Positions 536 through 63,612 of a DNA stretch of 64,000 bases are shown one piece after another (positions within the stretch are counted from its first letter, which is position 1; each line of letters begins with the position of its first letter). The notes under the pieces are model-generated. The model had not been told where the DNA came from. It made no database searches and was given only the letters and a program-made list of their open reading frames with translations. A program made the position numbers and the translations under genes. Source of the DNA: an uncultured Candidatus Saccharibacteria bacterium (GTDB taxonomy: Bacteria > Patescibacteriota > Minisyncoccia > Phycocordibacterales > CAYSCM01). The stretch is from NCBI GenBank assembly GCA_964429815.1, contig CAYSCM010000001.1, positions 416,001-480,000 of the forward strand. Direction: 5' to 3'.

Positions 536-1120
536 TTAGAGTGATGGCGTCGGCGTGACTTTACCGGGAAGAAGTTCAATGGAGGAAAGAGGGAAGAGGC
601 GTACCAGTGCGCGACCCACGAGGTCGCGTGCGGGAAGCGTTCCCCAGTAGCGAGAATCGGAACTTGCCTTGCGGTTGTCACCGAGAACGTAGTACTCGTT
701 GGGACCGAGCGTGACGCTCAAGTGGTCATTGCTTTGACGCTCTGGCGCAATGAAAGACTGGTTGAAGGCGGCCCCTTCGGGGTGTTCCTTGTTCACGATG
801 ACGATAGAAGAACCGTTTATCTTCAGCGTATCTCCGGGGAGCCCGATGATGCGTTTTATGAAAAATTTACTCCTGTCTTTTGGGTAGCGGAAAATAACCA
901 CGTCGCCATACGCCGGCTGCCCCAGCCGGTAGGAGAGCTCGTCGACGATGAGGTAGTCGGCATTCTCGAAGGTCGGCTCCATAGAAGCGCCGGAGACGAT
1001 AAAGGGCTGCGCGATGAAAGTGCGGATAGGAGCCACGATAATGAACGCGAGCACCGCGAATTTGATGAGCTCCCAGAGAAAGTTTCCTTGCTGCTTCGGG
1101 ATCTCAACGAAAGGTTCCAT
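536..1120 (-). CDS. lepB: signal peptidase I
   Basis: 194 aa with an N-terminal TM segment. Contains the S26 catalytic regions IVSGASMEPTF and YYVLGDNRKASSDSRYWG. Stop is 4 nt before the downstream hisS-like start. Confidence 0.85.
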   Translation of the reverse strand: MEPFVEIPKQQGNFLWELIKFAVLAFIIVAPIRTFIAQPFIVSGASMEPTFENADYLIVDELSYRLGQPAYGDVVIFRYPKDRSKFFIKRIIGLPGDTLKINGSSIVIVNKEHPEGAAFNQSFIAPERQSNDHLSVTLGPNEYYVLGDNRKASSDSRYWGTLPARDLVGRALVRLFPLSSIELLPGKVTPTPSL

Positions 1121-1217
1121 ACGACTTGGGCACCATTATAGGCGCGTGGCTTCGTTGACGCAATAGATTTTCTCGTGTCGTAGCGCGTCCGTGGCGATTT
1201 TTGGTACAATCGCACGC

Positions 1218-1808
1218 ATGCAGCCGATACTGGTGGGACTTGGAAATCCCGGGGAAGAGTACGAATCGACCCGTCACAACTCAGGGCGCGACTTTTGCGC
1301 GTACGTTTTGCGCAAGATGGGCGCGGGTGAGCCCGAGGCTCATAAAAAGAGCAACGCGCTCTTAGGTGAGACCAAGATCGGGAAGAAGAAGGTGCTCGTC
1401 GCCATGCCTCAAACGTACATGAACAGCTCTGGGAAGGCCGTGAAAGCGTTGGTGAAGAGTAAAAAGGCGGCCCAAAACCTCACCGTTGCCTACGATGACC
1501 TCGATTTACCGCTCGGCGCCATAAAAATATCCTATGGGCGCTCCTCGGGAGGGCATAACGGGGTGGATTCTATAATAAAGAGTCTCGGCACGAGGGAGTT
1601 TGTGCGCATCCGCATCGGCGTGTCGCCGGGAACTCCCTCCGGCAAAACAAAAAAGCCCTCCGGTGAGAAGGCCATACTCGACTTTTTAATGGGGAAGCGC
1701 CGCCCAATGGAAGAAGAAGTTCTTAAAAAAGTTTTCAAAAAGGCTCTCGAAGCTTTCGAGACAGTCGTTAACGAGGGCCGCGATGTCGCGATGAGCAGGT
1801 TCAATTAA
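1218..1808 (+). CDS. pth: peptidyl-tRNA hydrolase
   Basis: MQPILVGLGNPGEEYESTRHNSGRDF is the classic Pth N-terminus. The track ORF begins at 1191; the internal ATG at 1218 matches the family start. Confidence 0.85.
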   Translation: MQPILVGLGNPGEEYESTRHNSGRDFCAYVLRKMGAGEPEAHKKSNALLGETKIGKKKVLVAMPQTYMNSSGKAVKALVKSKKAAQNLTVAYDDLDLPLGAIKISYGRSSGGHNGVDSIIKSLGTREFVRIRIGVSPGTPSGKTKKPSGEKAILDFLMGKRRPMEEEVLKKVFKKALEAFETVVNEGRDVAMSRFN

Positions 1809-9967: not shown

Positions 9968-10306
9968 ATGAAGCGACCACTTCGAACGCTTGTCCTCACA
10001 CTGCCACTCCTCGCGCCTTCCGTAGCGCTCGCGGCGGCGCGGCCGCAAAATTTCGCCGACTTCGTCCACCACCTCACGAGGCTCCTTAACCTTACGATCC
10101 CCATCGCATTCGCTATCGCACTTCTTGCGTTCTTCTGGGGGCTAGTGAAATTCATATACCTCTCCTCCGAGAGCGATTCGGCCCGTGAAGATGCCAAAAA
10201 CATCATGCTCTACGGAGTGCTCGCGCTTTTCGTCATGCTCTCGGTGTGGGGCTTCGTGCGGATTCTCCAGGAGACTATCTTTGGTACCTCGGGCATTCTT
10301 CCGTAG
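9968..10306 (+). CDS. TrbC/VirB2-like pilin-like protein, paralog 2
   Basis: 112 aa: signal peptide, then IPIAFAIALLAFFWGL...EDAKNIMLYGVLALFVMLSVWGFVRILQETIFG. Two-TM topology shared with paralogs 3 and 4. Confidence 0.6.
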   Translation: MKRPLRTLVLTLPLLAPSVALAAARPQNFADFVHHLTRLLNLTIPIAFAIALLAFFWGLVKFIYLSSESDSAREDAKNIMLYGVLALFVMLSVWGFVRILQETIFGTSGILP

Positions 10307-10405
10307 AGAGCTTGTCCACATTGACCCTTTTACGCTCCGAGAGCGAGGGCGTACTATAAGCTCGTACAACAATTAGCAAACCTTAGCCCATAAATCGACA
10401 TTTTC

Positions 10406-10759
10406 ATGCGTAAATACGCTTTACTCGCAACCGCCTATCTTCTCCCCGTCGTTGTATTCGCGCAGGGGAGCGGCGTTGAAGGGCTTCTCAACAAGCTCTC
10501 CCGCTGGATAAACATCGCGACCCCGATAGTTTTTGCGCTTGCACTCCTAGCGTTTTTCTGGGGCCTCGCGGTCTATGTTTTTAACACCGGTGATGAAGAA
10601 AAGCGCAAGCAGGGCAAGGACATCATGATCTGGGGCGTCATCGCGCTTTTCGTCATGGTCTCGGTCTTCGGCATCGTGCGCATTATTCGCGAGACTTTCG
10701 GCATTAGCGCCAACGAAACCGCTCATATCCCGACCGTTCAAGGGACGAACGCTCAATAG
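10406..10759 (+). CDS. TrbC/VirB2-like pilin-like protein, paralog 3
   Basis: 117 aa: signal peptide, then TPIVFALALLAFFWGL...GKDIMIWGVIALFVMVSVFGIVRIIRETFG. Clearly homologous to paralog 2. Confidence 0.6.
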   Translation: MRKYALLATAYLLPVVVFAQGSGVEGLLNKLSRWINIATPIVFALALLAFFWGLAVYVFNTGDEEKRKQGKDIMIWGVIALFVMVSVFGIVRIIRETFGISANETAHIPTVQGTNAQ

Positions 10760-10768
10760 CGTTGGCCA

Positions 10769-11032
10769 ATGACCGCGGCCACCACTTTCGTCAGGGCGAT
10801 AAACGACTACATCATCAACCCTATCATCGGGCTCCTCTTTGCTGCGGCCATGGTCCTTTTTATCTGGGGCGGCGCGCAAATGATTTTCTACCCTGGCACC
10901 GAAGATAAGCGCGAGGACGGCAAGCGTCACCTCTTTTGGGGCATCATCGGGATGTTCATCATGGTCTCGGTCTACGGACTCCTCAATCTCATCACGAGCA
11001 CATTCGGCCTCCCGCACGTCGTCAGCCACTAA
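10769..11032 (+). CDS. TrbC/VirB2-like pilin-like protein, paralog 4 (short N-terminus)
   Basis: 87 aa: IIGLLFAAAMVLFIWGG...GKRHLFWGIIGMFIMVSVYGLLNLITSTFG. Same core motif as paralogs 2 and 3. Confidence 0.55.
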   Translation: MTAATTFVRAINDYIINPIIGLLFAAAMVLFIWGGAQMIFYPGTEDKREDGKRHLFWGIIGMFIMVSVYGLLNLITSTFGLPHVVSH

Positions 11033-14245: not shown

Positions 14246-14270
14246 GTGCCGGGGGTGGGGGTCGGCACAT
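14246..14270 (+). repeat. partial direct duplicate of the tRNA-Leu(TAA) 3' end (att-like)
   Basis: gtgccgggggtgggggtcg (19/19) plus cacat matches plus-strand 15813-15840, which is the 3' half of tRNA-Leu(TAA). Same orientation, 1.55 kb away. Confidence 0.6.
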
Positions 14271-14339
14271 CCGGCTTCCAAAATGCCGAACACGGCGCCT
14301 GCCCGTCCGAAGCTTTAGCGAAGGAGGGAGGCCGCTTCG
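14263..14339. repeat. 77-bp inverted repeat, left copy (IR-L)
   Basis: Reverse complement of 15543-15619 with one mismatch (76/77). Abuts and overlaps the tRNA-derived repeat by 8 nt. Confidence 0.8.
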
Positions 14340-15542: not shown

Positions 15543-15619
15543 CGAAGCGGCCTCCCTCCTTCGCTAAAGCTTCGGACGGGCAGGCGCCGCGTTCGGCATT
15601 TTGGAAGCCGGATGTGCCG
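15543..15619. repeat. 77-bp inverted repeat, right copy (IR-R)
   Basis: cgaagcggcctccctccttcgctaaagcttcggacgggcaggcgccgcgttcggcattttggaagccggatgtgccg is the reverse complement of 14263-14339. Confidence 0.8.
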
Positions 15620-15810
15620 CGCCGCCGCCCTCGCCACCGACGGCGCGGCTGGTTCGAGTTATTTCTAGTATTCTGCACTATAGCAGGCAACTGCTTGCCT
15701 GCGTGTGGGCATCGAAGGCCGCAGTGATGTTTCGTTAGGAGACGAAACCGCGGGGCGGGGTCGCGACCGAGGCGAGCGGCGGCGAGCTCTGATTTGTAGT
15801 TTCAAACTTG

Positions 15811-18231: not shown

Positions 18232-18711
18232 CTACTTGTCGCCGAGATACTCTTTAGCATCTTTGATCGCTGCCTTCTCTTCGTCGGTAAGCTCGTAGGA
18301 GGAGCTGCCTTTTTGGAGCGGCTTTCCAAACACACTCATACGATCCCTACTCCAGAGTGTCGAGAGGATCATGCCGTCTCCATCTTCGTTGAGGAATGCG
18401 GTAGCAAAGCTCTGAAATCCTCCCTCGCCGGTTCCCTTAAAAGGATTGAAGCGGATGGTTTTCACACCCTGCACGGCACGTCGGAGTCTTCGCTCGACGC
18501 GCGAGAGATATTTCTCCATCTCATCCTGCCACTCCCGCATCTCGATGAGCGACTTACCATGCTCGGCGATCGCGGACTCAAGGTCGGCGCCTTTCTTTCC
18601 GCGCGTGAGGCGATGAAGTCGCATTTCGAGGCGAATGATCCACAGCGTCGCGATGATGAGTGCGCCCGTAAGAATAAGAAGAAGCGTCGTGGTTTCAAAA
18701 GGAGCGGTCAC
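18232..18711 (-). CDS. DUF4446-like membrane-anchored protein
   Basis: N-terminal TM, coiled segment, then IRFNPFKGTGEGGFQSFATAFLNEDGDGMILSTLWSRD, the DUF4446 signature region. Confidence 0.55.
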   Translation of the reverse strand: MTAPFETTTLLLILTGALIIATLWIIRLEMRLHRLTRGKKGADLESAIAEHGKSLIEMREWQDEMEKYLSRVERRLRRAVQGVKTIRFNPFKGTGEGGFQSFATAFLNEDGDGMILSTLWSRDRMSVFGKPLQKGSSSYELTDEEKAAIKDAKEYLGDK

Positions 18712-18776
18712 GGCATAGCCATACTACACGCGGGGGACGCTTTTGCAAAACGGCACTCCCTGCGTAGAATGGCGCA

Positions 18777-19982
18777 ATGGTTTGGTTTCTGCGCCGAAAA
18801 GCGCCAGCATTGAAGCGAGTATACCTCGACTACGCATCGACTACGCCGGTCGACCCGCGCGTCAGCGCGGCCATGGCGCCATACCTTTCGGAGACCTTTG
18901 GGAATCCGAGCTCGCAGCACGAAGAGGGATTCGCGGCTCGCGACGCGCTCGCTATATTTCGCCGATCCATCGCGCGCACGATAGAGGCGCACGCGGACGA
19001 GATAACGTTCACCGGAAGCGGCTCGGAAGCAAACAATCTCGCCATTCTCGGTCTTGCGCGCGCGCTTGAGAGGAAGGGAAGAAAACTCTCCGACATGCAT
19101 GCCGTCGCCTCGGCCATCGAGCATCCCTCCGTGCTCGAGTGCCTTGCCAAGCTTCGTCGGCGGAGTCTCTCGGTCACTTTGGTGCGCCCCACCAAGGAGG
19201 GCATCGTAACGGCAGAGGCGATCGTGAAAGAGCTTACGGAGAGGACGGTGCTCGTTTCGGTTGGGCTCGTAAACGGCGAGATAGGGACGATCGCGCCATT
19301 GCGCAAGATCTCTCAGGTGCTCAGGGCCCGGAAGGGGGAGACGATCTACCTCCATACGGATGCGTCACAAGCGCCGCTCTACCTGTCGCTTCTTGTCGAT
19401 TCCCTTGGCATCGACCTCATGACGGTTGATGCACAAAAAATCTATGGACCCAAGGGCGTAGGGTTCCTCTACCACAAGCGCGGCGTGCCGCTCTCGCCAC
19501 AAACTCTCGGCGGTTCGCAAGAGTCGGGGCTACGCGCCGGCACTGAGCCGCTCTCGCTCATCGCGGGGCTCGCGACGGCACTTCGCCTCGCTCAGGAAGG
19601 GTGGAAAGAGCGTCGCGAGAGTACCATGTCGCTGCGTGACTATCTTATAGAAGGGTTGGAAGCGCGCATTCCCAAGGCTGTTCTCAACGGAAGCCGCAGC
19701 AAGCGCGTCGCGAACAACGTCAACATGTCGTTTCCAGGGATGGACGGAGAGTATCTGGCGGCGCTTCTCAATGCCGCGGGCTTTGCGGTCGCGACCAAAA
19801 GCGCATGCCTTAACAGAGAGCGTGTCTCCTACGTTATCGAGGCGTTGGGAGCGGACGAGGCCCGCTCTTCATCGGCGATTCGCATCACTCTTGGTATACA
19901 TGTAGGTCATGGGGAGCTCAATGCGTTCCTCAAATCACTCGCGACGATCGTTGCAAAATTTGACAAATCGCCTCAAAAGTGA
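18777..19982 (+). CDS. cysteine desulfurase (class V aminotransferase, IscS/NifS-like)
   Basis: VYLDYASTTPVDPRV...TGSGSEANNLAI...HTDASQA...MTVDAQKIYGPKGVGFLY (PLP-Lys region) and a C-terminal Cys loop (ATKSACLNRE). Confidence 0.85.
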   Translation: MVWFLRRKAPALKRVYLDYASTTPVDPRVSAAMAPYLSETFGNPSSQHEEGFAARDALAIFRRSIARTIEAHADEITFTGSGSEANNLAILGLARALERKGRKLSDMHAVASAIEHPSVLECLAKLRRRSLSVTLVRPTKEGIVTAEAIVKELTERTVLVSVGLVNGEIGTIAPLRKISQVLRARKGETIYLHTDASQAPLYLSLLVDSLGIDLMTVDAQKIYGPKGVGFLYHKRGVPLSPQTLGGSQESGLRAGTEPLSLIAGLATALRLAQEGWKERRESTMSLRDYLIEGLEARIPKAVLNGSRSKRVANNVNMSFPGMDGEYLAALLNAAGFAVATKSACLNRERVSYVIEALGADEARSSSAIRITLGIHVGHGELNAFLKSLATIVAKFDKSPQK

Positions 19983-29084: not shown

Positions 29085-29663
29085 ATGGAAACCATCACAC
29101 CGATCCACATCGGACAAAAAGTCCCAGATCTAGCCTTCAATGTCTACCACAATGATAAGGAGAAGAAAATGAGCCTCTCTGATTTCAAAGGGAAGTGGCT
29201 TATCCTCTTCTTCTATCCAAAGGACTTTACCTTCGTGTGCCCGACCGAGCTCGAAGAGATGGCCGGCCTTTATGATAAGTTCAAAAAAGAGGGGGCAGAG
29301 ATCGTCTCGGTCTCAACCGATACCGTGCAGGTGCATAAAGCCTGGCATGACACGTCCGAAGCTATCAAAACGATAACCTTTCCGATGGCTGCGGACCCAA
29401 CGCACGCCCTCACGCACACCTTCGGTGTCCATATCGAGGAGGAGGGTGTGGCACTACGCGGCTCATTCGTGGTTGACCCTGAGGGAGTGCTTCAGGCGCT
29501 TGAGATAAACCCCGATGGGGTAGGGCGTAATGCGAAGGAACTTTTGCGCAAGGTGCAGGCGCTCAAATTCGTCCGGGAGCACGGGGACAAAGTGTGTCCG
29601 GCGAGCTGGGAACCGGGGGACGAGACTCTTACTCCCGGAATGGACCTTGTCGGGAAAATATAG
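29085..29663 (+). CDS. peroxiredoxin (typical 2-Cys, AhpC/Prx1 family)
   Basis: FTFVCPTELEE (peroxidatic Cys) and KVCPASWEPG (resolving Cys). Start set to ATG 29085 (METITPIH); the track ORF start at 28893 overlaps the miaA start. Confidence 0.85.
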   Translation: METITPIHIGQKVPDLAFNVYHNDKEKKMSLSDFKGKWLILFFYPKDFTFVCPTELEEMAGLYDKFKKEGAEIVSVSTDTVQVHKAWHDTSEAIKTITFPMAADPTHALTHTFGVHIEEEGVALRGSFVVDPEGVLQALEINPDGVGRNAKELLRKVQALKFVREHGDKVCPASWEPGDETLTPGMDLVGKI

Positions 29664-29707: not shown

Positions 29708-29741
29708 CATATTCTAGTTTTTTGCAAAAAACTAGAATATG
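29708..29741. promoter_or_regulatory. 34-bp perfect palindrome catattctagttttttgcaaaaaactagaatatg (operator-like; contains symmetric ATTCTA-N16-TAGAAT)
   Basis: Exact reverse-complement symmetry over 34 bp. Related copies at 49628-49657 and 49931-49960 flank an ArsR-family gene. Confidence 0.55.
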
Positions 29742-29770: not shown

Positions 29771-29808
29771 GGGGAATAAAAAGAAAAGCGGCGGCTCGTG
29801 AGAGCCGC
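29771..29808 (-). terminator. intrinsic terminator of 29816-30559 gene
   Basis: gcggcggctc-gtga-gagccgccgc, followed on the minus strand by UUUUCUUUUUAUU. Confidence 0.65.
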
Positions 29809-29815
29809 CGCGGCA

Positions 29816-30559
29816 TTACCGGCGGTACAAATCCGTGTACTTGGTGATTATCTCAAGGGGTGACTTTTCATACCTTGGGTGAAAGAGCATTCGTCCCAAA
29901 ATATGATTCACCACTCGACCGTCCATGAGTGCAATAAGTTCTTCGGGCGTGATGGTATGGATTTGGTCGTCCTCCGCGATCCACGTGACCCACGTCGGGC
30001 GAATAGCGGGGATCCAAAAGATAACCTTATCGAAGCGAGGCTTTTCGAGCAGTGTCGGCAGATCCCTTCCCGAACAAACAATGTCATTGATACCGGCGTT
30101 GACTGCCTCGGTCGCGAGGAGTTCCACCGCCTCAGCTCGTGTCTCGACCTTGTGAAGTCGTCTGGTCTCAACAAGGGGCTGCGTCGTCGGAACCGTGACT
30201 GCAATCAGGGTAAGGTCGTGAGCTTTGGCAAGTGCGGCTCGCATCATGTGCTGCCCACCGACGGCAGCGACCGTGAGGTACTTCGCTCCAGCAAAGCGCG
30301 CTTTTTCAACGCGCTCCACCACGTCACTGTCGGCGCCATATCCTTTGTCGTCAACGAACACTCCTAGTGGGTCGAGTGGTCTTGCCGAGTGGATCGCGTT
30401 GACACCTCCTTTTAGGTTATGAGAGCGAAAGGGTCCGTGGATCTTGATACCCCGAACATGTGGATTCCTCGCGAGTTCAACTGCGAGGTTTTCATGCGTG
30501 TCTGGGAGCGGATGACCCAATCGCTCGTCAAGCGCTGGCCAAATTCTGAGTTCCTGCAT
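29816..30559 (-). CDS. OMP-decarboxylase/HPS-like TIM-barrel family protein (possible orotidine 5'-phosphate decarboxylase)
   Basis: 247 aa with a weak family-level resemblance (KYLTVAAVGG, C-terminal NHILGRMLF). Not confidently assigned. Confidence 0.3.
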   Translation of the reverse strand: MQELRIWPALDERLGHPLPDTHENLAVELARNPHVRGIKIHGPFRSHNLKGGVNAIHSARPLDPLGVFVDDKGYGADSDVVERVEKARFAGAKYLTVAAVGGQHMMRAALAKAHDLTLIAVTVPTTQPLVETRRLHKVETRAEAVELLATEAVNAGINDIVCSGRDLPTLLEKPRFDKVIFWIPAIRPTWVTWIAEDDQIHTITPEELIALMDGRVVNHILGRMLFHPRYEKSPLEIITKYTDLYRR

Positions 30560-48380: not shown

Positions 48381-49556
48381 CTATTTGAGCGCCAAGAAGG
48401 CGTTCAGGTAGTGGAGCGAAATGCCGCCGAAGTCGGAAGCGCTTGCAAACGCTTTTTCGACGGCGGCAATCTGCCGTTCGTAGCGAGCCCGTGAGGTATT
48501 GAAGTAGGTGGTATAGGGAGGGGGAACATCGCCAAACTCGCTTGCAATGACTATTTTTGCGGTATGTCCCTGCGCTTCACGCAGCTCGCCCTGCGAGATA
48601 TCTATGGCGCCATCGTGTCCTTGCGCAAAATTGCGGTACGCCATGACGATTATCGAGCTGCCCGGCCGGCGGTCGAGGAGTCGCACCAGCTGGTTGATGG
48701 TGTCGCCACGATGGAAACCGTAGAAAAATTTTCCGGCTGAGAGTGTGTCATAAAAATCAGGAACGACCACCGCAAAACGCAAATCCGAGCCGTAGAGCCA
48801 CTCGAGGCTCTGGTCAACAAGTGCTGTAAAACGCCGCAAGACAACGCGCGGCTGACTCTGGTACTCTGAGAGAAGGTAGGGTTCGACATCGTACTGAAAA
48901 CCGCGCAGTTTTTCCGTATTCATTTTATTGAAGTCGATGGCGTAGGCGACAACAGCCGCAGGTTTGTAGGTGTGGCCGGGCTCAGCCCAATTGCGCCAGC
49001 CCCCCTCTGCATCGACCGCGATGCCGGCCGCATGGGCGTGCGTCACGAAATCCTCAAGCGTTTCATCAAACTGTTTCTTCAAGGCACTCTTTTGCGACCC
49101 CTCAGGCATGATGAAAATATCGAGATACGAATCGATCGAAAGATAGATAGCCTTGATGCCCTCCTGTTTTGCCCCAGCGATTACGGTGTCGCGGTAGGTC
49201 GGCGTAATCTCGAGCACAGGAGTCCACAGCCACGTGCCTTTTTCAGCTGCCGTGTCGGTAGGGAGGATTTGCGTATGTCGCGGTGCAAAGGCGCTCAAAA
49301 TGCTGGCGATTTGTCCGCCGCCTTCGATGGTGACCGAGTCGGCGAAGTGCGGATCGGAGAGCTTGGCGTTTTCCGTGATGTGAGTATCGGAGTACAGATG
49401 GGGGAGGACCGCAGGGAGGGAGAGAGTGAGCGCGGAGGAGCTCGGGGAGCTCGAACGCACCACGTAGTAGTACGCGCCGACGACGAGCCCGACGAGGAAA
49501 AGGGCGACGTAGAGTTGGTGCTTTGGACTGCCCCGAGGATGTCGAGCTTTGTGCAT
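48381..49556 (-). CDS. hypothetical secreted protein, possibly glycoside-hydrolase-like TIM barrel
   Basis: N-terminal TM/signal (LYVALFLVGLVVGAYYYVV). Alternating beta/alpha pattern with acidic residues at strand ends (KAIYLSIDSY; IVMAYRNFAQGHDG). Family not identified. Confidence 0.35.
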   Translation of the reverse strand: MHKARHPRGSPKHQLYVALFLVGLVVGAYYYVVRSSSPSSSALTLSLPAVLPHLYSDTHITENAKLSDPHFADSVTIEGGGQIASILSAFAPRHTQILPTDTAAEKGTWLWTPVLEITPTYRDTVIAGAKQEGIKAIYLSIDSYLDIFIMPEGSQKSALKKQFDETLEDFVTHAHAAGIAVDAEGGWRNWAEPGHTYKPAAVVAYAIDFNKMNTEKLRGFQYDVEPYLLSEYQSQPRVVLRRFTALVDQSLEWLYGSDLRFAVVVPDFYDTLSAGKFFYGFHRGDTINQLVRLLDRRPGSSIIVMAYRNFAQGHDGAIDISQGELREAQGHTAKIVIASEFGDVPPPYTTYFNTSRARYERQIAAVEKAFASASDFGGISLHYLNAFLALK

Positions 49557-49627
49557 TCGCTCTATTTTATCCTATTTATCCTACGGCCAACCTTCCCACC
49601 CCAGCCTCCCCACCCCAGCCTCGTGTA

Positions 49628-49657
49628 TATTCCAGTATTTTGCAAAATACTAGAATG
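49628..49657. promoter_or_regulatory. palindromic operator/promoter motif upstream of ArsR gene (tattccagtattttgcaaaatactagaatg)
   Basis: 18-bp perfect palindrome agtattttgcaaaatact within an ATTCCA-N16-TAGAAT arrangement. The -10 (49651-56) is 30 nt before ATG 49686. Confidence 0.5.
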
Positions 49658-49685
49658 AGTTGTCTTCCTGGGGTACGATACAGCC

Positions 49686-49961
49686 ATGGCTCAGCACACT
49701 TTCCGTTCACTTGAGCGCATTATCAAAGGATTTGACAACCATCGACGGCTCGGGATTCTCGACCTTCTTAAGCGTAAACCTGAACTCTCCGTGGACGAAA
49801 TTGCGGAGCAACTTCGGATCGGCTACCAAAACGCCTCTGATCACATACGCAAAATGGCCATCGCAGGGTTGGTAGCTAAACGATATGAAGGGACGACCGT
49901 GCGACACAAACTCACGCCGCGGGCTGAGGATATTCTAATATTTTGCAAAAAACTGGAATAA
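49686..49961 (+). CDS. ArsR/SmtB-family HTH transcriptional regulator
   Basis: 91 aa. RLGILDLLKRKPELSVDEIAEQLRIGYQNASDHIRKMAIAGLV winged-helix region. No CxC metal site evident. Confidence 0.75.
   Translation: MAQHTFRSLERIIKGFDNHRRLGILDLLKRKPELSVDEIAEQLRIGYQNASDHIRKMAIAGLVAKRYEGTTVRHKLTPRAEDILIFCKKLE
49931..49960. promoter_or_regulatory. third copy of the palindromic motif, embedded in the last codons of the ArsR gene (tattctaatattttgcaaaaaactggaata)
   Basis: Encodes ...DILIFCKKLE-stop. Imperfect palindrome, closely similar to the copies at 29708 and 49628. Confidence 0.45.
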
Positions 49962-50076
49962 GGAAACAATAATAAGGAAACAATGAGGATACGAGAGGAC
50001 GAAAATGGAAAAACTTGAATAAAGAAGTAAGGAAAAGCGCAAAGGGGGAAACGCAGAGTCATACAAAATAAGTGAG

Positions 50077-51543
50077 CTATTTGAGAACGCTCCACATGCC
50101 CTGATCCTCGCCGCCGTCCATTTTAAAGACGGCAACGCCGCGCACGCCGAGGCCCCGTGCGAGGTCGACTTTGTCTTTGATAGCCTGCGCGTCGTTCCAG
50201 GTCATGTAGTTGAAAGGTTTGCTCGCATCGATTTGTGAGCCGAGATTTTGTGCAACGGAAGTTGTCGCGACCTCTTGCTGCGTTTGCGTGATGTTACCAT
50301 CGGCCGGCGCCTGCGGAAGCGTCGCTTTGTCGTAGATGAAACCTACCTCGTTCGCGCTTGTGCGATGCACGGCGATGCCAAGCCGCGCGGCGATGTCGGT
50401 CGCATATCCGGGGTTAAACGGCCAGAGCACTTCATACTGAAAACCCGAGCCGGAAAGTGGCGTCACGTGGTACTCGTAGCCGTAGGTCGGAATGCCGATG
50501 ATGAGCTTATTGCGGGAAATGGTTTGTGCTGCAAGACGCACAAGATCTTCAACCCAGCCGGGGTCCGCGACCGGTGCGTACGGGGCGGAGCGTGCGACGT
50601 TTAAGCGCTTATCGACCGTCGTCTGATCATAGGCCATGATCTCGACGCGATCGCAGTACTTATTGAGCGCGACGTAGTCGTTGGCGTAGTCGGTCGCGTC
50701 CGGCGGAATGGTGTCGCCCGGAAGATAGCGGTCCTCAAGCGGCATGCGGGCTTCGACGGTGCAGTACACCCACTTTTGCCCCATGCGCTGGTAGAGGCCT
50801 TTGAGGAAGGTCGAGAAGTAGTTGATGGTCTCATGCTTTTTGGCTTCAAAGTCGATGTCTATGCCGTCAAAGCCCATGCCCTTCACGGTCGCCGCGATCT
50901 CGTCTTCCAGCGCGATACGCTTTGTGGTATTGCTCAATACCGCCTGCATCGCATCTGCGTTGCCCCAGAGAATGCTCGGCACCACGCGCACCTTGGTGGC
51001 CTTTGCCTGTGCGATAAAATCGCTCCAAGGTTCAAAGCCAAGTTGTGCGGTATCGATAAGATGACCATCTGAGCTCACGTTGTAGGAGAAGGGCATTACA
51101 CTTGCTAGCTGAGGCAGGTGGGGGATGACGTCTCGGGTCGCTGTCGCTACTCGCCAGTAGGGAACCCAGCCGCTTATTTCAAATTTTCCGGTGGCAGCGG
51201 GTGTAAGAGTGAGGGAAATTTTTGCAGGATTTTTGGGGTACGTGGTCCCAAGCGTGAGAGCAGCTTGCGTTCTTGGGCCATACACACCGTAGCCGGTCGC
51301 ATCTTCTGTACAGATGACCTCCTGCGCGCACTGGAACTTTTTAATCGCTGCTTGTGTGAGAGGACCAAAGTAGCCGGAGTCTTTTCCGGAGGCAAGATAA
51401 CCCTGCGCGATGAGTTTTTGCTGGAGAGTAGCCACATCGCTTCCTGAATCGCCAAGCGATAGGGAGCGAGTCGCTGCGGAGGCCGTGGGCGCGATGAGGA
51501 GTACGAAGAAAAGCGGAAGTGCAAATAAAAAACGTCGTGGCAT
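50077..51543 (-). CDS. GH18 (chitinase-like) glycosyl hydrolase with N-terminal peptidoglycan-binding domain and signal peptide
   Basis: PG_binding_1-like LGDSGSDVATLQQKLIAQGY...FGPLTQAAIKKFQ. GH18 catalytic FDGIDIDFE. Start taken at ATG 51543 (MPRRFLFALPLFFVLL signal). Confidence 0.7.
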   Translation of the reverse strand: MPRRFLFALPLFFVLLIAPTASAATRSLSLGDSGSDVATLQQKLIAQGYLASGKDSGYFGPLTQAAIKKFQCAQEVICTEDATGYGVYGPRTQAALTLGTTYPKNPAKISLTLTPAATGKFEISGWVPYWRVATATRDVIPHLPQLASVMPFSYNVSSDGHLIDTAQLGFEPWSDFIAQAKATKVRVVPSILWGNADAMQAVLSNTTKRIALEDEIAATVKGMGFDGIDIDFEAKKHETINYFSTFLKGLYQRMGQKWVYCTVEARMPLEDRYLPGDTIPPDATDYANDYVALNKYCDRVEIMAYDQTTVDKRLNVARSAPYAPVADPGWVEDLVRLAAQTISRNKLIIGIPTYGYEYHVTPLSGSGFQYEVLWPFNPGYATDIAARLGIAVHRTSANEVGFIYDKATLPQAPADGNITQTQQEVATTSVAQNLGSQIDASKPFNYMTWNDAQAIKDKVDLARGLGVRGVAVFKMDGGEDQGMWSVLK

Positions 51544-61594: not shown

Positions 61595-61629
61595 TTCCCT
61601 CAGTTCTTTGGCATTCAAGAGTACCGTGA

Positions 61630-61684
61630 GATGAGCTTTTTGTGGCTGAAAAGTCGGCCCCAAAAAGCTCGTCTCATCAGAGAC
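61630..61684 (+). promoter_or_regulatory. conserved 5'-leader stem-loop, copy A (candidate cis-regulatory RNA)
   Basis: 13-bp stem gatgagctttttg/caaaaagctcgtc encloses ggcug-aaaagu-cggcc, followed by hairpin gtctc-atca-gagac. Copy B at 62659-62702 differs by compensatory base pairs. Confidence 0.45.
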
Positions 61685-61733
61685 AGTCGCCAGTCCGAGC
61701 GCCACGGGCATCACACCACTAAGGAGGTATGCG

Positions 61734-62501
61734 ATGGAAACCATCGTGAGCCGCACCTTGTCGGTACACAAGGAACACGAAGTCCTTCTGAAGCTCGAAG
61801 CGGCGGGGTTCAGCGACGATCTCGCACAGAAGGTCATCGAATCGAGGGACAACGACCTCGCCAAAAAGGTCGTGCGCCTCATTCGGAGCGGCGGCCTCGA
61901 GCCGTCGACCTCACAGCAGAAGGCCCGCGAGATCATGGGCACGAACATGTTCGGCATCGAGGACGCGATCAAGCATTTCGACGTCAACCCGTCGAAGACC
62001 CAGCTTGCCGCACTCTGCGAAATCCCGTTCAGTGAGGAAGTGCTCGTGGCCTCTAAGGACACGCACGTTCTTGTGGCGCTGTTTCCACTTTCAATCCTCG
62101 ACGTTCGAGGCGAGGCCGACTGTAGGCTCTTCTACTTCCACGAAGGCACCTGGTACAACAAGAAGCAGGCGTTCGCGAAAGACAGGGGCGAGATCGGCTG
62201 GCAGCTCGTTCGCAAGACCCCGGTTGACAACTCGACGAGCAAGTCTTGGGGCGAGCAGCAGAAACTGCTCGGTAAGGACGAGGAGACGCCGAAGGCGCAG
62301 GTAATTGTCTATACGATCATTGCCCACTTTCTCTCAACCGGCGAGCGATTGTTCGAAAGCATCTACGTCAGATGTTCCGATCTCGGCTCGGACGGCTTCC
62401 GCATCAACGTCGGCCGTTTTAACGTCATAGGTCTCCACATCAACCACTACTGGGACGACCGCCGCCACGACAACCTCGGCTTATCCTCTGCCCGGAAGTA
62501 A
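61734..62501 (+). CDS. hypothetical protein, paralog A (255 aa)
   Basis: SD AAGGAGGtatgcg-ATG. C-terminal half is homologous to 62753-63538 (IYVRCSDL..G..VG.F...GL...YWDD.RHD.LGLSSARK). Confidence 0.55.
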   Translation: METIVSRTLSVHKEHEVLLKLEAAGFSDDLAQKVIESRDNDLAKKVVRLIRSGGLEPSTSQQKAREIMGTNMFGIEDAIKHFDVNPSKTQLAALCEIPFSEEVLVASKDTHVLVALFPLSILDVRGEADCRLFYFHEGTWYNKKQAFAKDRGEIGWQLVRKTPVDNSTSKSWGEQQKLLGKDEETPKAQVIVYTIIAHFLSTGERLFESIYVRCSDLGSDGFRINVGRFNVIGLHINHYWDDRRHDNLGLSSARK

Positions 62502-62536
62502 CCTTGAATCTTGGGGCCTCGGTCTCTTGTTCCCTT

Positions 62537-62576
62537 GAGCCCCTGCGAATTTTTTTTGCGGGGGCTCTTTGTTTTT
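62537..62576 (+). terminator. intrinsic terminator after paralog A
   Basis: gagcccctgcg...cgggggctc, then tttgttttt. Confidence 0.65.
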
Positions 62577-62586
62577 GGCACTGAGA

Positions 62587-62615
62587 TTGACTAGAGTCTA
62601 TAAATATGATAAAGT
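62587..62615 (+). promoter_or_regulatory. sigma70-type promoter TTGACT-17-TAAAGT for paralog B
   Basis: ttgactagagtctataaatatgataaagt. Confidence 0.45.
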
Positions 62616-62658
62616 GCGTCCGGCGTTCTTTTCCATTTACTACAAAGGTTACTTATGA

Positions 62659-62702
62659 GGCGAGCTTCCTGCGGCTGAAAAGTCGGCCCCAAAAAGCTCG
62701 TC
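62659..62702 (+). promoter_or_regulatory. conserved 5'-leader stem-loop, copy B
   Basis: ggcgagcttcctgc-ggctgaaaagtcggcc-ccaaaaagctcgtc. Outer-stem pairs G-U and C-G occupy the positions where copy A has A-U and U-G. Confidence 0.45.
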
Positions 62703-62752
62703 TCAATCAAGAGGTAGCCGCTCGCCCAAGCGTAGGGCACAGGAGAACGACG

Positions 62753-63538
62753 ATGACGACCGCCAGGTCTATCACGTCCGAACAGCGTACCCAGTACAAT
62801 CGCTTCGTGCAGGATGGAGGCCGCAAGGCTCTTCGCCAAGCCGGTCTCGACAGGGAGGGTCTGCAACGGCTCTTCAAACGCGGCGGCGAATTCCAAGCCC
62901 ATATCTTGGAAGGCGTCAAGCGTTTTTCGGCGAAGCAGCCGGACTACACGCTGGCGCAATCCATCCTCGGCGTCGATTTCATCACGCCGGAGGAGCTCAT
63001 GAAAGTGTCGGCGGTAATTTACGAGGACAAGCACCTCGCTTCGCTCCACGACACTGTCCCGCCGGAAGACGTTCTGCGTTGGTGCAAAGACCATAATTAC
63101 GTCGTGGTCGCGGCCCCACCCTATCCGATAAACTTGCTCAACATCCGCATGCTCGACAGCAGCCTCTTCTATTCCAAAACGGGCGGCTGGTATTCCGAGC
63201 AGAAGTTCGCGAGCGAGAACAAGACCAACACGGGCTGGCTCATGATCCGCAAGGATCCTGTGCCGAAATCGACCAGCAAGAACTGGGACGAGCAGAACCA
63301 GCTCGTCTTCGGCGTCGAGCACGTTCCGAATTCGGCCGAGGTGAGTTGGCTTGTCACGACCTATTTCAAGGTTCGCGGCGTCCGGCTCTTCGAGAACATC
63401 TACGTCAGATGTTCCGATCTCGACTCGGGCGGCAACCGCGTCTACGTCGGCTACTTCGACTCGGAGGGTCTCCGCGTCAGCTTCTACTGGGACGACTTCC
63501 GCCACGACCTCCTCGGGTTGTCCTCCGCCCGGAAGTAA
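62753..63538 (+). CDS. hypothetical protein, paralog B (261 aa)
   Basis: Start set to ATG 62753 with SD cAGGAGAacgacg-ATG. The track ORF 62606 includes the leader. Homologous to paralog A over the C-terminal roughly 150 aa. Confidence 0.55.
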   Translation: MTTARSITSEQRTQYNRFVQDGGRKALRQAGLDREGLQRLFKRGGEFQAHILEGVKRFSAKQPDYTLAQSILGVDFITPEELMKVSAVIYEDKHLASLHDTVPPEDVLRWCKDHNYVVVAAPPYPINLLNIRMLDSSLFYSKTGGWYSEQKFASENKTNTGWLMIRKDPVPKSTSKNWDEQNQLVFGVEHVPNSAEVSWLVTTYFKVRGVRLFENIYVRCSDLDSGGNRVYVGYFDSEGLRVSFYWDDFRHDLLGLSSARK

Positions 63539-63573
63539 CCTTGAATCTTGAGGCCTCGGCCTCTTGTTCCCTT

Positions 63574-63612
63574 GAGCCCCCGCGAAATTTTTCGCGGGGG
63601 CTCTTTGTTTTT
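63574..63612 (+). terminator. intrinsic terminator after paralog B
   Basis: gagcccccgcgaaa-tt-tttcgcgggggctc, then tttgttttt. Confidence 0.7.

Follow-up and report, generated by a model that had tools for sequence, protein, structure and literature searches.

A palindrome-bracketed ArsR-type regulator gene of Patescibacteria: a probable autorepressor whose operator also appears to spread as a low-copy element

The 64-kb stretch of patescibacterial DNA analysed here (the window) carries a small gene, arsR, for a regulator with the ArsR/SmtB fold, which has a copy of a short palindrome at either end; a third copy of this palindrome stands alone elsewhere in the window. We consider it probable that arsR encodes an autoregulated ArsR-type repressor and that its operator also spreads as a low-copy palindromic element. 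As judged from comparative sequence evidence, the best-supported mechanism would be that an ArsR-fold dimer, or two dimers together, binds the 5' palindrome and thereby represses its own gene. The arsR gene with its palindrome bracket is a lineage-wide module and not a local oddity, and the regulator family is found together with the palindrome across Parcubacteria/Paceibacterota.

The original prediction for this DNA had reported three copies of the palindrome and a 276-bp ArsR-family open reading frame (ORF), and both were recovered. A degenerate 29-mer derived from the copy sequences of that prediction found three sites in the window (29710-29739, 49628-49657 and 49931-49960; 0.00 expected by chance, 100 shuffles), all of which were placed in one family by an independent repeat search, and the ORF encodes a 91-aa protein that passes the thresholds of two Pfam families. 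The palindrome is 28–31 nt long in the window, often extends to ~36 nt in related genomes, and has a G+C content of ~25%, as against 52-60% for the window. The solo copy is a perfect palindrome, and the two copies at arsR are imperfect. The core of the 5' copy ends 29 nt before the arsR ATG, while that of the 3' copy spans codons 83-91 (ILIFCKKLE) and the first base of the stop codon. This copy had been assigned to the last eleven codons of the gene; it is indeed embedded at the end of arsR, but in nine sense codons plus the stop.

The two Pfam families are HTH_20 (score 35.9, gathering threshold 27) and HTH_5 (28.6, threshold 22), and the NCBIfam model NF033788, 'metalloregulator ArsR/SmtB family', gives 50 bits, below its cutoff of 55. 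An AlphaFold model of the regulator (predicted local distance difference test score, 81) has the topology α1-α2-α3-α4-β1-β2-α5, with helices at residues 3-14, 19-30, 36-43, 47-59 and 78-90 and strands at 63-68 and 71-76. In this model, the palindrome-encoded residues 83-91 make up most of helix α5, which is the dimerisation helix of the ArsR/SmtB family. The top structures in a Foldseek search were SqrR, YgaV, HlyU, AspA, CadC and SmtB (template modelling scores of ~0.75-0.8), and the closest solved structure by sequence is HlyU (E=1.5e-5). Metal ligands, sought as a CXC or ELCVCDL motif in α3 or as a D/H/E cluster in α5, are absent from the family consensus, which has no Cys in α3 (PELSVDDIAE) and no His/Asp cluster in α5 (RAESILVFCKKLE). 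The sole Cys in the family, C87, is invariant, and its TGC codon forms the centre of the palindrome; lying in the dimer helix, it may be the signal-sensing residue. A search for homologues returned 482 proteins, of which the best 120 (88-104 aa) are 69-82% identical to the regulator and belong to Kaiser-, Adler-, Taylor-, Lloyd-, Lipton- and Niyogibacteria and other 'Paceibacterota' (Parcubacteria lineages). The recognition helix hardly varies among the homologues, even in paralogues with a TAAC variant of the palindrome, which made a comparison of protein and site specificity by covariation uninformative.

The bracket was found throughout these lineages. An exact-pattern scan covering one genome per species returned 66 loci, all in metagenome-assembled genomes (MAGs) of Patescibacteria, several of which carry more than one locus, and several of the loci hold pairs of palindromes ~300 bp apart; a relaxed scan gave the consensus ATTCTAGTATTTTGCAAAATACTAGAAT. 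Within the palindrome loci, 23 arsR homologues were mapped, and the two-copy bracket was present wherever both flanks could be read, with the 3' core always ending 2 nt before the end of the ORF, in the same register in every locus. To avoid circularity, 80 homologue loci were sampled from metagenomes independently of the palindrome, with queries that stopped short of the C-terminus it encodes. Of the loci that could be assessed, 67 of 74 had the 5' copy and 76 of 78 the 3' copy, and the apparent misses were over-extended start codons, shifted sites overlapping the -10, hybrid sites or a single mutation in the centre. The proposal that the regulator is bracketed by its own putative operator extends from the window to nearly the whole family. 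The spacing between the two copies is 283-336 bp in 78 loci, with a mode of 293 and a cluster at 290-297 bp, and the synteny of arsR is conserved within sub-lineages. Some contigs carry two paralogous arsR units 2-8 kb apart (L128 and L131 on Ga0155704_114; L099), and same-contig paralogues are each bracketed by their own palindrome variant. One paralogue type recurs, with the C-terminus VLTFCKTLE and TAACG...CGTTA arms.

The position of the 5' copy points to a role in repression. At 23 distinct loci, which form the 16-nt class, the 28-nt core is followed by 4 nt, the hexamer TAnnAT, 6 nt and the ATG, a geometry which implies a leaderless arsR mRNA. At other loci, the -10 lies ~18 nt past the core, often as TGTGTATAAT, and the TAnnAT-6 nt-ATG geometry is kept in these longer classes; in one paralogue group, the right arm of the palindrome merges with TATAAT and overlaps the -10. 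In the window, the hexamer TACGAT lies 6 nt upstream of the arsR ATG at 49686 and starts 18 nt after the core, so that the 5' palindrome covers the -35 region. Since it abuts or overlaps core promoter elements, the 5' palindrome occupies the position of a repressor operator, and the autoregulation suggested by the original prediction gains comparative support. Control of the divergent upstream gene, which had been suggested along with it, is not borne out: the -10 (49564-49569) and -35 of that gene are at least 38 bp from the palindrome, so that direct control is not indicated, and the neighbour is not conserved. A consensus promoter scan returned no promoter at the arsR locus.

An unrelated divergent promoter elsewhere in the window (18712-18776) reads TTGCAA-16 nt-TAGAAT-6 nt-ATG and exemplifies the local promoter grammar. 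Its two (near-)leaderless promoters share a palindromic -35, in the arrangement TAGTAT (reverse strand)-16 nt-TTTTGCAAAA-16 nt-TAGAAT-6 nt-ATG at 18777, and a GTG at 18711 starts the opposite-strand gene. The sequence TTTTGCAAAA occurs only four times in the window (0.04 expected), in this promoter and in the three ArsR palindromes. Accordingly, -35-like and -10-like hexamers of this organism make up the ArsR palindrome, with spacers of 5 nt instead of 16. We rejected the palindrome as a promoter in its own right: TTGCAA and TAGAAT are both found inside it, yet they are separated by 5 nt, compared with 16 nt in the real promoter of the window.

The 3' copy is constrained as DNA. Among 62 distinct arsR coding sequences, the palindrome codons are frozen (TTT in 62/62, TGC in 62/62, AAA in 61/61 and CTA in 58/62), as is the preceding Ser codon (TCT in 38/39), and the normalised codon entropy is 0.26 in the palindrome codons and 0.87 elsewhere in the gene (p=1.5e-5). 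As the synonymous sites are frozen, we conclude that the 3' copy is selected as DNA. At one locus (L146), the right arm of the coding copy is gone, and a perfect palindrome with the same locus-specific arm as the 5' copy stands 30 nt after the stop codon, which indicates that a downstream copy is maintained as DNA even when it is non-coding. On these sequence patterns, the 3' copy is probably an auxiliary operator, a roadblock or a cassette boundary. Its evolution is also tied to that of its partner: on average, 2.9 mismatches separate the two copies of a locus, as against 4.7 with shuffled partners, and none of 5000 shuffles gave a value as low. Symmetric double changes occur even in the coding copy, where GCT...AGC gives ILAFCKKLE and ACG...CGT gives ILTFCKTLE. 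Such concerted change of the 5' and 3' copies is not predicted by binding alone and points to recombination or gene conversion among copies.

The palindrome is not confined to the bracket. Copies are few (three in the 64-kb window, four exact-pattern sites in a 680-kb contig and at most ~8 per MAG sampled, hence ~2-8 per genome), cluster near arsR, and adjoin the 3' ends of genes about twice as often as the starts (64 vs 34), many of them 3-30 nt after stop codons. Thirteen copies lie within long ORFs and are all read as (Y/H)SSILQNTR(I/M), the sole hydrophilic stop-free frame of the palindrome, which is identical on both strands. One of these ORFs is the antisense of arsR; the other 12 are genuine genes, with hosts including Tgt, TsaD, KsgA/RsmA, an EndoIII (Nth)-like glycosylase, a D-Ala-D-Ala carboxypeptidase (DacA-like), a formyltransferase (Fmt-like), TspO and a C39 peptidase. 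In-frame copies in housekeeping genes make up about a fifth of all copies outside the bracket. Four other genes use the internal TAG of the palindrome as their stop codon. In Tgt, the palindrome peptide falls in a hypervariable loop that is filled in 6, decayed in 4 and empty in 111 of 121 close homologues, and the nearest relatives of the filled proteins are mostly empty. One junction was seen in two states: L008 reads ABC-F-[palindrome]-HI0933, with arsR beyond ABC-F, and L038 and L048 read ABC-F-[palindrome-arsR-palindrome]-HI0933, the flavoprotein ATG overlapping the arsR stop codon; no remnant palindrome was found upstream of ABC-F in L038 or L048. Further genes bracketed by two palindromes encode an extracytoplasmic function (ECF) sigma factor, UPF0102, Bax1-I and several unknowns. 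At L023:721-1465, the bracketed gene (840-1391, minus strand) is of the ECF sigma-70 type and its upstream palindrome has the leaderless promoter geometry of arsR; judging by this arrangement, the gene is possibly a genuine regulatory target in that genome.

The arms of the palindrome also change in a characteristic manner. Across 107 distinct sites, arm complementarity exceeds that of shuffled arms at the variable inner positions 5, 7 and 9 and at the outer positions -1 to -4 and vanishes beyond -5, and the palindrome sites of one genome have different flanks, each of which is symmetric. Three orthologous regions (L040:7820-7990, L065:3580-3760, reverse complement, and L066:5020-5190) differ at 6 of ~170 positions, four of which fall in the 9-nt flanks of the palindrome; in L066, those four substitutions raise the flank complementarity from 5/9 to 9/9. 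This looks like a templated extension of the palindrome through a hairpin or template switch, maybe in a single multi-base event; templated extension is a mutational process and requires no structural function. Hybrid sites with one canonical and one alternative arm (ATTACGTAA-TTTTGCA...) were seen at L044:3636-3949, L037:2316-2343, L042:6175-6202 and L055:1360-1387; in L044, two of them bracket an 87-aa ORF without a known family, next to arsR.

Taken together, we suggest that the regulator binds the duplex palindrome as a dimer or a pair of dimers, and that an occupied 5' copy would occlude RNA polymerase, leading to negative autoregulation. Recognition as duplex DNA is favoured by the poor hairpin that the 3' copy of the window would form (z 0.08). 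That copy, ~290-300 bp away, would serve as a second operator: it might pair with the first in a loop, block elongation just before the stop codon or control a co-directional downstream gene where there is one. As copies are gained and decay, have their arms extended by templating and change in concert, we propose that the operator also propagates as a low-copy DNA element, probably via recombination or gene conversion among copies, and solo copies may be by-products or extra binding sites. The original prediction had held that palindromes lacking the regulator at many loci of related genomes would count against it. Such palindromes are found at many loci, but those genomes carry the regulator elsewhere, which refutes a locus-specific operator and not the binding itself.

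Several observations weigh against an autorepressor with a spreading operator. Within single sites, the arms and the outer 4 nt covary, and no other part is as invariant as the centre, TTTTGCAAAA, an uncommon trait for an operator. Helical phasing of the spacing between the two copies is not significant (Rayleigh p ~0.1 at 10-11.3 bp/turn, 78 loci). The 5' and 3' copies share asymmetric variants, the direct orientation matching better than the inverted in 30 loci vs 7. The genes at 108 sites reveal no common regulon: clustering of the adjoining proteins, with Pfam summaries, left 90 singleton clusters, and recurrent neighbours were limited to the immediate ones of arsR (ComM-like, ABC-F and the HI0933-like flavoprotein). 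Most solo copies are not placed at promoters: of 62 solo sites, 5 are in divergent gaps, 21 in tandem gaps, 13 in convergent gaps and 18 within genes (5 unclassified), and the promoter geometry of arsR recurs at just 12 of 67 solo sites, against 6% of controls.

Many of the same observations could be explained if the palindrome were chiefly a mobile or propagating element, with arsR and its two palindromes as the master unit, a winged-helix analogue of the REPtrons discussed below. Recombination between palindromes would then excise and re-insert the arsR unit and seed single palindromes elsewhere, also in-frame, and the protein would bind, mark or tame the ends of the element, without regulating host genes. 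We regard this as unlikely. The observations in its favour are the in-frame copies in genuine housekeeping genes, always in the one hydrophilic stop-free frame, the patchy Tgt loop, the internal TAG that serves as a stop in four genes, the concerted evolution in direct orientation, the ABC-F/HI0933 junction with a lone palindrome or an arsR unit, the further genes between two copies, the hybrid arms, the bias towards 3' ends and convergent gaps, and the clustering near arsR. The relocatable cassette of the original prediction finds some support in the concerted direct-orientation copies, in the junction and in the other bracketed genes. On the other hand, the unit encodes no catalytic protein, the palindrome is present in very few copies, target-site duplications are not visible, and no viral or plasmid association was seen, viral contigs giving no palindrome match. 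Moreover, the sequence is nearly identical in deeply separated lineages, which points to purifying selection instead of selfish turnover, arsR keeps its synteny within sub-lineages, and for the arsR unit there is a single filled/empty example. It is doubtful that the unit is a new low-copy genetic element of the Candidate Phyla Radiation (CPR), which relocates via its palindromes, seeds single palindromes between genes and, in-frame, within essential genes, has its α5 encoded by its own binding or recombination site, and resembles a REPtron without the HUH nuclease.

It is improbable that the palindromes serve in chromosome organisation or segregation, in the manner of parS, matS or the AspA centromere, and are bound by an autoregulating nucleoid or centromere protein of the ArsR fold, with a function set by chromosome position and not by nearby genes. 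The sites are few and highly conserved, many are outside promoters or in coding DNA, one is in the gene of the binder itself, and the neighbouring genes are heterogeneous; in addition, the regulator model superposes on the pNOB8 centromere-binding protein AspA with a root-mean-square deviation of 1.0 Å over 72 columns, and AspA was also a hit by sequence. However, no ParA/ParB-type partner is consistently adjacent, the recurrent neighbours include no partition genes, the sites of the 680-kb contig, at ~365, 463 and 647 kb, are without obvious clustering, and patchy gain and decay in orthologous genes argue against a conserved positional function. Replication-terminus sites of the RTP/Ter kind were rejected on these contig positions and because a perfect palindrome has no polarity.

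We judge it improbable, too, that the palindrome acts as a nucleic-acid hairpin (an RNA 3' end, a terminator, a stability element or a DNA cruciform) or as an Xer/dif-like 11-6-11 site, with arsR as a passenger. As single-stranded DNA, the solo copy forms a 15-bp hairpin and scored as terminator-like (-12.1 kcal/mol, z -6.4), the arms and outer 4 nt covary, many sites follow stop codons closely, and templated flank extension implies hairpins in vivo. The core can also be parsed as ATTCTAGTATT-TTGCAA-AATACTAGAAT, with a centre that is invariant in 107 sites, which is a formal likeness only. Against this, the arsR-linked copies of the window fold poorly (z -2.6 for the 5' copy), the 5' copy is upstream of the arsR transcription start, template-switch mutation can explain the covariation, and multiple dispersed copies per contig or genome are incompatible with a single dif. 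An Rfam search of the window found tRNAs only and no family at the palindrome sites. An intrinsic terminator is unlikely, as most copies lack a U-tract and separate canonical terminators adjoin several.

The coordinates of the arsR locus, the solo copy and the in-frame copies are given in Table 1.

Table 1 Features of the arsR-palindrome system, in window coordinates or, for loci of related genomes, under locus handles (L)
Feature	Position	Strand	Basis or remark
arsR, 91-aa ArsR/SmtB-fold winged-helix regulator gene, 276 bp	49686..49961	+	Pfam HTH_20, HTH_5
5' palindrome copy, probable primary operator	49627..49657; core 49629-49656, ATTCCAGTATTTTGCAAAATACTAGAAT		Motif scan and repeat search
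-10-like hexamer TACGAT of arsR	49674..49679	+	Sequence reading
3' palindrome copy	49930..49960; core 49932-49959		Motif scan and repeat search
Solo palindrome copy, perfect	29709..29739; core 29711-29738		Motif scan and repeat search
GH18 + PG_binding_1 gene	50077-51543	-	Pfam; convergent with arsR
Divergent 391-aa ORF	48381-49556	-	One N-terminal hydrophobic segment
In-frame copies, genuine genes	L007:2703-3953, L014:3-1043, L035:3-725, L026:5523-6731, L054:1335-2093, L039:6587-7411, L024:6879-7442	-	
In-frame copies, genuine genes	L050:299-1426, L045:5331-6278, L046:3747-4460, L010:860-1477, L058:2312-2872	+	

Of the neighbours of arsR in the window, Pfam confirmed the predicted gene with a GH18 and a peptidoglycan-binding domain, and the 391-aa ORF matched no Pfam or NCBIfam family, which leaves its 'TIM-barrel-like' label unconfirmed. 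The suggestion of a cell-wall or glycan-remodelling locus found no support, the GH18 gene being convergent with arsR and the neighbours wholly different between genomes (ComM, ABC-F, HI0933-like, HtrA, GNAT, cupin and others). The solo copy of the window occupies the convergent gap between a peroxiredoxin gene (29085-29663, plus strand) and an orotidine monophosphate (OMP) decarboxylase-like gene (29816-30559, minus strand), whose terminator (29788-29811, minus strand) adjoins it; in a Taylorbacteria MAG (L016), a palindrome site is likewise 3' of the homologous OMP decarboxylase-like gene.

Other repeats were also noted in the window. A 14-nt unit, CCCACCCCAGCCTC, forms a perfect tandem duplication at 49595-49622, between the 5' palindrome and the promoter of the 391-aa gene, and an 11-nt direct repeat, AAGGAAACAAT, has two copies 14 nt apart at 49962-49986, directly 3' of the arsR stop codon. 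Further away are an 88-nt inverted repeat near tRNA genes (14252-14339 and 15543-15630; 93% complementary, arms 1.2 kb apart) and a ~1-kb tandem duplication at 61627-63592 (83-90% identity, 1029-1037 nt from start to start), each duplicate of which holds a 50-nt hairpin-like unit (61627-61676 and 62656-62705). A 94-nt coding repeat, in three copies at 10158-10977 (61-71% identity), encodes the conserved hydrophobic C-terminal segment of neighbouring small ORFs.

To our knowledge, almost nothing is known of gene regulation and genome dynamics in the CPR/Patescibacteria, which cannot be cultured alone. The present system offers a specific and very conserved putative protein-DNA pair for a major CPR lineage, which can be tested without cultivation, either in E. 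coli or in vitro. A single 28-nt stretch combines three roles: it encodes a protein helix, is a probable binding site and, as a repeat, changes in concert with its partner. Besides, the palindrome adds a peptide of 10-12 aa to core tRNA- and rRNA-modification enzymes. If the palindrome is mobile, it would represent a new route by which short DNA elements spread in streamlined genomes; if it is an operator only, it would be a rare operator conserved across orders, whose non-promoter copies need explaining. We found no prior description of an arsR-palindrome system in Patescibacteria in the literature. As far as we could find, the fusion of an operator to the C-terminal codons of its regulator across a large CPR lineage is unusual and apparently undescribed, and so is the occurrence of the same palindrome in-frame inside essential genes.

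Among known systems, the nearest are the ArsR/SmtB autorepressors (SmtB, CzrA and CadC, and the non-metal HlyU, SqrR/BigR and YgaV), which share the fold and the small, presumably dimeric protein and likewise have a palindromic site over their own promoter, in the geometry of negative autoregulation. Like HlyU, SqrR and BigR, the regulator lacks metal ligands and has a Cys in α5, although this Cys is single and not part of an α2/α5 pair. It differs from this family in its remote sequence relation (the HlyU match being the best in the PDB) and its sub-cutoff NCBIfam score, in a palindrome that is long (28-36 bp), near-perfect and repeated within the last codons of its own gene, in the lack of a cognate efflux or detoxification gene, and in the extra copies in coding DNA.

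The bracket itself recalls REPtrons, in which RAYT/TnpA-REP genes are flanked by repetitive extragenic palindromic (REP) sequences (PMC8266576, PMC3733652). Both are vertically persistent modules with a single-copy gene between two copies of a short dispersed palindrome that is mostly extragenic and found at gene 3' ends. However, the protein here lacks an HUH or Y1 domain and is a DNA binder of the winged-helix type, whereas that of REPtrons is an HUH Y1 nuclease. There are few copies per genome here, compared with tens to hundreds for REP, and the palindrome is conserved across orders, whereas REP sequences are species-specific; it has no GTAG/CGTC tag, and one of its copies is coding.

The in-frame copies resemble Rickettsia palindromic elements (RPE), reportedly described by Ogata et al. 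in 2000 (cited in PMC1166351) as in-frame selfish palindromic repeats in protein-coding genes. As with RPE, the palindrome lies in-frame in housekeeping genes, in a stop-free frame, and is tolerated in surface loops, but it is 28-36 nt long (10-12 aa) and not ~100-150 nt, its copy number is much lower, and it is tied to a gene for a dedicated DNA-binding protein. Auxiliary operators in coding DNA are known from lac O2 and gal OI, and parS is found inside spo0J/parB. The 3' copy is similarly a second site in a coding sequence a few hundred bp from the primary one and, like parS, is inside the gene of the binder; unlike these, it occupies the last nine codons in the same frame throughout the family, and coding and site constraints are fused. 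In the HrcA-CIRCE system, an operator that is a perfect inverted repeat has remained nearly constant between very distant lineages, with few sites per genome, and the inverted repeat described here is similar in its constancy and low number; CIRCE, however, governs a coherent chaperone regulon from 5' leaders, while the palindromes described here are without a coherent gene set. Overall, the system combines a probable ArsR-type autorepressor with a palindrome that behaves like REP and RPE.

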